Virus record (IMG/VR): IMGVR_UViG_2711768009_000009
Length of the DNA: 43,679 nucleotides
From: a virus
Lineage: Duplodnaviria > Heunggongvirae > Uroviricota > Caudoviricetes
Strand: one strand, 5' to 3'
This document shows, piece after piece, positions 4,368-4,432 of this stretch (positions are counted from its first letter, which is position 1; each line of letters starts with the position of its first letter). A model generated the notes under the pieces. That model had not been told where the DNA came from. It searched no databases and saw only the letters and a list, made by a program, of their open reading frames with translations. Position numbers and translations under genes: made by a program.

Positions 4368-4432
4368 TTTGATACCGATTTGCATTTCATTTGATACCGC
4401 TGAAAAACGCCGATACGCAACTTATTTGATAC
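4368..4432. repeat. Right-end (attR-like) cluster of three closely spaced TTTGATACCG-type repeats, putative transposase binding sites R1-R3
   Basis: TTTGATACCG at 4368-4377 and 4390-4399, TTTGATAC at 4425-4432, all in the same orientation, ~50-110 bp beyond the mom stop. Confidence 0.6.

Follow-up and report, generated by a model that had tools for sequence, protein, structure and literature searches.

The ends of the Sp18-type transposable prophage present in the 43,679-nucleotide stretch of DNA analysed here (the window) carry six copies of a ten-base repeat, three of them reading inward as direct copies from each terminus, and these repeats very probably represent the att sites by which the prophage's own transposase, a member of the MuA superfamily, recognises the ends, R1 to R3 at the mom end and L1 to L3 at the c end. 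This assignment is drawn from comparison of the sequence with that of Mu and of a series of relatives. In substance the finding is already known, since six putative transposase-binding sites have been listed for Sp18 in the literature (PMC2628397), and the novelty that an earlier note on this DNA implied for the repeats was overstated. That note had also described three repeats at each end, close to one another at the mom end and widely spaced at the c end, arranged like the R and L sites of Mu but with a core unlike the Mu consensus; all of these features were recovered in the present analysis, the orientation of R3 being the one respect in which the layout differs from that of Mu.

The element in the window is a complete transposable prophage of the Mu type, and specifically of the Sp18 type. 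Its termini were set independently of the motif, from over 220 complete E. coli genomes whose flanks differ and from an empty ISEc8 site. These genomes match the 600 bp around the repeats and have a different flanking gene in each case (sgrR, ydcF, bcsA, bglJ, citF and others), a change from copy to copy that is the signature of transposition. In particular, homology on the mom side always ends at 4351, and homology on the c side ends at 43033, or at 43031 in those copies that differ at 43032. The sequence past 43033 is ISEc8, and the two flanks join perfectly in an uninterrupted copy of this insertion sequence (L001), in which they overlap by exactly four bases, TGTC. The limits of homology, together with the rejoining of the flanks as uninterrupted ISEc8, therefore define the element as 4351-43033 (Table 1). 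In annotated relatives the gene order is mom, com, invertase, tail, head, lysis, mor, gam, B, A, ner-like and repressor. The gene interrupted by the prophage is orf2 of ISEc8, an IS66-family element whose halves lie in the flanks 1-4350 and 43034-43679. Masked runs of N are found at 2371, 9412-9668 and 10800-11030, that is, in the left flank and in the tail-fibre and invertible-segment region. In addition, RefSeq annotates a 'tRNA-OTHER' in relatives, between the virion morphogenesis and the head morphogenesis genes (L002 21326-21405, L003 21223-21302, L005 23550-23629 and L006 17992-18079), and ARAGORN run over the whole window returned no tRNA.

Table 1. Features of the prophage and of its ends in the window; offsets are counted from the terminal nucleotide of the respective end.
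Feature	Position	Strand	Offset of 22-bp unit	Offset of 10-mer	Description
Sp18-like transposable prophage, whole	4351-43033				38,683 bp; mom (right) end at 4351, c (left) end at 43033
Target-site duplication TGTC, left copy	4347-4350	+			Flank overlap in uninterrupted ISEc8 (L001)
mom-end terminus 5'-TATAG	4351-4355	+			Transferred strand ends ...CTATA-3'
R1	4356-4377	+	6-27	18-27	Core TTTGATACCG at 4368-4377; register as Mu R1
R2	4378-4399	+	28-49	40-49	Core TTTGATACCG at 4390-4399; abuts R1; register as Mu R2
R3	4413-4434	+	63-84	75-84	Variant core TTTGATACTA at 4425-4434; direct
MuB-like AAA+ transposition ATPase	38721-39662	-			Pfam Phage-MuB_C, AAA_22
Transposase, MuA superfamily	39736-41823	-			695 aa; Pfam Mu-transpos_C, HTH_Tnp_Mu_1; presumed reader of the repeats
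Operator-like palindrome AAATTTGATAACTAA / TTAGTTATCAAGTTT	42082-42096 / 42099-42113				15-nt, c-ner intergenic, plus direct repeat; not end-type
L3	42860-42881	-	153-174	165-174	Variant core TTTGATACTG at 42869-42860
L2	42912-42933	-	101-122	113-122	Core TTTGATACCG at 42921-42912
Inverted repeat ATCACCTGT-N16-ACAGGTGAT	42946-42979				9-bp, perfect; in the L1-L2 spacer
L1	43007-43028	-	6-27	18-27	Core TTTGATACCG at 43016-43007
c-end terminus ...GTTATA-3'	43029-43033	+			Most relatives ...GTTACA-3'
Target-site duplication TGTC, right copy	43034-43037	+			Flank overlap in uninterrupted ISEc8 (L001)

The six end repeats have the consensus (A)TTTGATAC(C/T)(G/A), the exact 10-mer being present in R1, R2, L1 and L2 and a variant of it in R3 and L3. 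All copies point inward, which gives the two ends opposite orientations, and the 10-mers form the inner ends of 22-bp units; at either end, 5 bp separate the terminal unit from the cleavage site. When at most one mismatch is allowed, the window contains 11 matches against 2.2 expected, a count that none of 100 shuffles reached. Scanning the window with a 13-nt matrix built from the six sites, as the earlier note had proposed, retrieves at the score of the weakest site those six only in 43.7 kb (0.01 expected), a result that is circular by construction, as the matrix derives from the same six sites. At a laxer threshold one internal match appears, TTCTTTGATACCG at 23252-23261 on the minus strand, in the gene for the major head protein; this match is probably due to chance (0.26 expected at that threshold). 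The heptamer TTGATAC by itself is not over-represented, with six copies in the interior of the element and about 3.6 expected for the whole window.

The layout of the repeats was compared with that of the MuA sites, which the same script mapped on the Mu genome at 6-27 (L1), 151-172 (L3), 6-27 (R1), 28-49 (R2) and, inverted, 56-77 (R3). As in Mu, each end has three sites, the terminal unit occupies offsets 6-27 at both ends, R2 is contiguous with R1 at 28-49, a long spacer separates L1 from L2 and L3, which lie 100-175 bp in, and the gene pair for MuA-like and MuB-like proteins adjoins the c end. In addition, the mom end opens with 12 nt, TATAGCGCGGCG, that resemble the right end of Mu, TGAAGCGGCGCA. 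Unlike in Mu, the core is TTGATAC and not CGAAA(A)/TTTCAY, in complete disagreement with the MuA consensus YGTTTCAYTNNAARYRCGAAAR, and a scan of the Mu ends found no TTGATAC; R3 is a direct copy at 63-84, whereas its Mu counterpart (56-77) is inverted; target sites are duplicated over 4 bp and those of Mu over 5 bp; the termini are 5'-TATAG...GTTATA-3' in the window, relatives having TA at the mom and CA at the c end, as opposed to 5'-TG...CA-3' in Mu; and the repressor shows no detectable relation to Mu c. Lacking sites that fit the MuA consensus, a duplication of 5 bp, TG/CA termini and an R3 in inverted orientation, the element falls outside Mu proper and within the Sp18-like group.

The closest likeness is to Sp18 of E. 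coli O157:H7 Sakai, with which the window shares the first 30 nt of the mom end, the positions of the three mom-end repeats and 28 of the first 30 nt of the c end. Sp18 and the Sp18-like phages of STEC have the same gene order, repeats with unchanged offsets and a 4-bp duplication (in Sakai, within sorM), and their transposases are 80-93% identical to that of the window. The copy in the window, like HH35, differs from the Sp18-like copies in being of another immunity type, with a different repressor and operator region, and its c end has TA where that of Sakai Sp18 has CA. Published work describes Sp18 as intact and Mu-like, a prophage that undergoes packaging but no circularisation (PMC2669165), and Sp18-like phages occur at variable sites in the genomes of STEC (PMC7430833; PMC10132054).

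The same arrangement is found throughout the relatives. The offsets of the repeats are shared by all E. coli copies that were examined, Sakai Sp18 among them, even where the sequence flanking the c-end cores has drifted to 84-91% identity, the cores themselves being intact. Even in the heteroimmune E. coli copies L003, L005 and L006 the end repeats keep their offsets, with cores that differ by at most one base (L1 is TTTGATACCA in L003 and L006). More distant relatives were obtained by tblastn against phage genomes, as a search for homologous proteins gave only proteins that are at least 79% identical. The transposases of Yersinia vB_YpM_5, Yersinia Tongde and Klebsiella Kp4866-3 are 82%, 56% and 57% identical to that of the window, respectively, and in these three phages the offsets of R1, R2 and L1 are identical to those reported here, R3 is displaced by at most 1 bp, and the positions of L2 and L3 differ by tens of base pairs. 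Across 27 unique 22-mers from phages of E. coli, Yersinia and Klebsiella, TTGATAC is invariant, preceded by A or T and followed by Y and then R, with the family consensus nnnggnaantnaTTTGATACtg; the outer 12 positions hold little information. Hence the ends of close relatives do carry the motif. The first 420 nt of the records of Klebsiella ST405-OXA48phi1.1 and Pseudomonas VW-6B show no end repeats; these records open inside the repressor gene or immediately next to it (position 1 and position 54). As a separate observation, the lengths of the late-gene coding sequences of Yersinia vB_YpM_5 (L007) and Tongde (L009) match those of Mu one for one; by this measure the two phages appear to combine Mu-like late genes with a transposase and end repeats of the Sp18 type, and look like mosaics of the two lineages.

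A comparison beyond this clade points in the same direction. The transposase of the window is nearer to those of SuMu (43% identity) and Mannheimia 3927AP2 (about 45%) than to MuA (23%). In the SuMu-type element 3927AP2 a different 10-mer, TTTTGCATAG, occupies the same register, with an L-end offset of 18-27; its right end has two copies of TTTTGCATAG 22 bp apart and a third that is inverted, and one of its left-end sites is likewise inverted. The SuMu record has the same L-end start as 3927AP2, and the termini of this type are TG, unlike those of the window. In other words, the geometry of the sites is kept across the superfamily and their sequence changes with the transposase clade, which is the behaviour expected of transposase sites. 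An analogous organisation exists in Tn7: its DDE transposase TnsB, from the same superfamily, binds several repeats of roughly 22 bp that are spread at one end and close-packed at the other. Tn7 differs in that it is not a phage, in the number of its sites, in its 5-bp duplication and in the unrelated sequence of the sites.

The transposase encoded by the prophage is collinear with MuA by BLASTP, with 23% identity (E=1e-13). Given this distance and a core unlike the MuA consensus, a separate end specificity is credible and is the natural reading of the repeats. Comparison of the heteroimmune E. coli copies divides the protein into two parts: residues 71-695 are 94-100% identical, residues 1-70 (41614-41823) only 41-61%, the value between the window and two heteroimmune Sp18-like copies (L003 and Z887) being 61% for the N-terminal 70 residues. 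As the conserved portion is common to all copies and the first 70 residues diverge, the end-binding function would lie downstream of residue 70, a location that agrees with the end repeats that the copies have in common. The operator region 42055-42245 changes in parallel with residues 1-70. This parallel change suggests an enhancer specific for immunity; in Mu and D108, too, the N-terminal domain of the transposase co-varies with the immunity type. In Mu, the enhancer bound by the transposase overlaps the operators O1-O3 (PMC3145075).

Structural comparisons gave limited returns. The PDB entries matched by the full-length transposase are limited to the N-terminal domain of MuA and the cores of retroviral integrases, and residues 71-260, which presumably bind the ends, found by sequence no meaningful match in the PDB, the solved I-beta and I-gamma domains of MuA included. 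An AlphaFold2 model of the full protein, based on an alignment of 15 sequences, has a mean pLDDT of 42 and is confident in residues 1-70 only. As regards the repressor (42242-42787), it shows a weak match to HTH_3 only. No relation to Mu c could be detected, nor one to the transposase's own N-terminal domain, so that the DNA-binding domain shared by repressor and transposase in the manner of Mu may not apply to this phage.

The reading of the six repeats as transposase sites is also favoured by a MuA-family transposase and a MuB-like ATPase encoded adjacent to the c end, and by ten independent insertion sites, which mark the element as mobile. Against it count the missing sequence match of residues 71-260 to the solved MuA domains, the weak conservation of the outer half of the units, which makes a bipartite contact in the manner of MuA no more than conjectural, and the orientation of R3, opposite to that of Mu R3. 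On the model of Mu transposition (PMC3145075), the 10-mer would be the inner, sequence-specific part of a unit of roughly 22 bp, each unit would be bound by a transposase monomer, and R1, R2 and L1 would make up the core of a synaptic tetramer, with a factor of the host or of the phage possibly bending the L1-L2 spacer. The 3' ends would then be nicked and joined to target DNA. That the joining is staggered by 4 nt, giving rise to a 4-bp duplication, is shown by the insertions themselves. The separate N-terminal domain of the transposase would probably contact the immunity-specific enhancer near the operators and not the end repeats.

Host factors offer another way to account for repeats at the ends, as these could be sites at which proteins of the IHF or HU type bend the DNA, and not transposase sites. 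Indeed, Mu employs HU in the L1-L2 interval and IHF at its enhancer (PMC3145075), and the complement of the core, GTATCAAA, contains, as judged by eye, ATCAA, an element of the consensus for IHF. In its complete form this consensus, WATCAANNNNTTR, has no match on either strand of the window, however, and the invariant positions go past ATCAA to cover TTGATAC with the following Y and R. Furthermore, in related hosts the motif changes with the transposase clade and the register of MuA sites is kept. On balance, an explanation by host factors appears very improbable.

It is just as hard to believe that the repeats, or a subset of them along with the copies in the operator, are sites for the c repressor or Ner that link end function to immunity. 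This idea draws on the two copies of TTTGATA at 42085 and 42111, inside the palindrome of the c-ner intergenic region, but the heteroimmune relatives L003, L005 and L006, with different repressors and operators, keep their end repeats, and the operator copies (TTGATAAC and TTGATATA) are devoid of the conserved C-Y-R tail. The operator regions of these three relatives are unrelated to that of the window and have no TTGATA repeats, apart from one lone TTGATATC in L005. The earlier note had spoken of a related motif in the operator: the two copies of TTTGATA do exist, but their relation to the end sites does not stand, given their loss in heteroimmune relatives. Their best interpretation is as operator sites of one immunity type, which may serve as enhancer sites too. 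That they might be enhancer-type relatives of the end sites was considered and rejected, because they are lost in relatives that keep both the end sites and residues 71-695 of the transposase. A further TTTGATA assigned by the earlier note to the region upstream of com proved to be misread: positions 5451-5457 are TTGATAC, within ATTGATACAA at 5450-5459, a partial match with a matrix score of 12.1, a level at which about two matches are expected by chance. The copy upstream of com is, in short, a chance TTGATAC.

The packaging (pac) signal of Mu lies inside its left end, and on this precedent some of the c-end repeats could serve packaging and not transposition; a strongly conserved palindrome is also present in the L1-L2 spacer of the c end. 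The motif, however, also occurs three times at the mom end, in the register of MuA sites, and a pac signal is expected at one end only; moreover, the conserved palindrome is a better pac candidate than the repeats themselves, which leaves a role of the latter in packaging scarcely plausible. This inverted repeat (42946-42979) has an RNA-folding z score of -3.85 and is essentially unchanged in heteroimmune relatives in which the neighbouring sequence has diverged. It is a candidate pac site, host-factor site or terminator of the repressor gene. Lastly, a clustering due to chance or to low-complexity, AT-rich end sequence, for which the six interior copies of TTGATAC might speak, is next to inconceivable in view of the shuffles, of offsets that are exact and mirrored between the two ends, and of the conservation of the motif across genera.

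Apart from the repeats interpreted here as transposase sites, the ends are distinctive in their terminal bases and in the duplication that they generate. The target duplication is exactly 4 bp long in all ten independent insertions for which it was determined, namely TGTC in the window, CGTA in HH35, TCCA in 2014C-3307, AACG in 2012C-4502, TTCT in Z887, TTTA in Sakai (within sorM) and TGCG, CGCA, ATCA and TGAA in four further genomes; Yersinia vB_YpM_5 and Tongde do not enter into this set, their records being virion or circular assemblies. The duplicated bases of the ten insertions follow a weak consensus, T-G-C-A. As a control, the same procedure applied to Mu returned 5 bp (GCCGC) in E. coli W; strain B-766 has the same junctions as the Mu of E. 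coli W, and the two were therefore counted as one insertion site. A duplication of 5 or 6 bp, in which the terminal T or A would belong to the target, was rejected, since the T and the A are constant and the outer base differs between the flanks in 9 of the 10 insertions.

With regard to the termini, the mom end reads ...CTATA-3' in all E. coli copies, and TA is also found there in the Yersinia and Klebsiella relatives. At the c end most copies read ...TTACA-3', but the window copy and HH35, together with a few close relatives inserted elsewhere, read ...TTATA-3'. Cleavage next to TA would accordingly concern the mom end of all copies examined and, in the sub-lineage of the window, the c end as well. 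The presence of the TA/TA variant at several chromosomal sites indicates that it is mobile, that is, that a sub-lineage transposes without CA at either end. Both the stagger at the target and the CA rule usually count as invariable within a transposase family, CA being near-universal. It is a real possibility, although one that falls a little short of probable, that the Sp18-type transpososome carries out its two strand transfers 4 nt apart and cleaves next to TA and not CA, and is still fully mobile. Among the present findings, novelty is conceivable only for the 4-bp stagger and for the termini in TA: no report of a 4-bp duplication in Mu-like phages or of such termini was found in the literature searched, which did not include Morgan et al. 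2002.

As docking sites of the transposase, the repeats add little to what is known, as this type of prophage is common in STEC and the sites have been mentioned before. The useful outcomes are the exact boundaries of the element, 4351-43033, and the recognition that TTGATAC at fixed offsets marks the ends of a clade that extends over E. coli, Yersinia and Klebsiella. In addition, the ends provide evidence that clades of the MuA superfamily keep the site geometry of Mu and change the sequence that is recognised. The 4-bp duplication, the TA termini and the co-variation of the N-terminal domain with immunity could be of interest to researchers concerned with the mechanism of transposition. If a 4-nt stagger with cleavage next to TA is unreported, the Sp18-type family would represent a natural, sequence-defined variant of the Mu machine, which could be used to ask what sets the target stagger and why CA is usually conserved.
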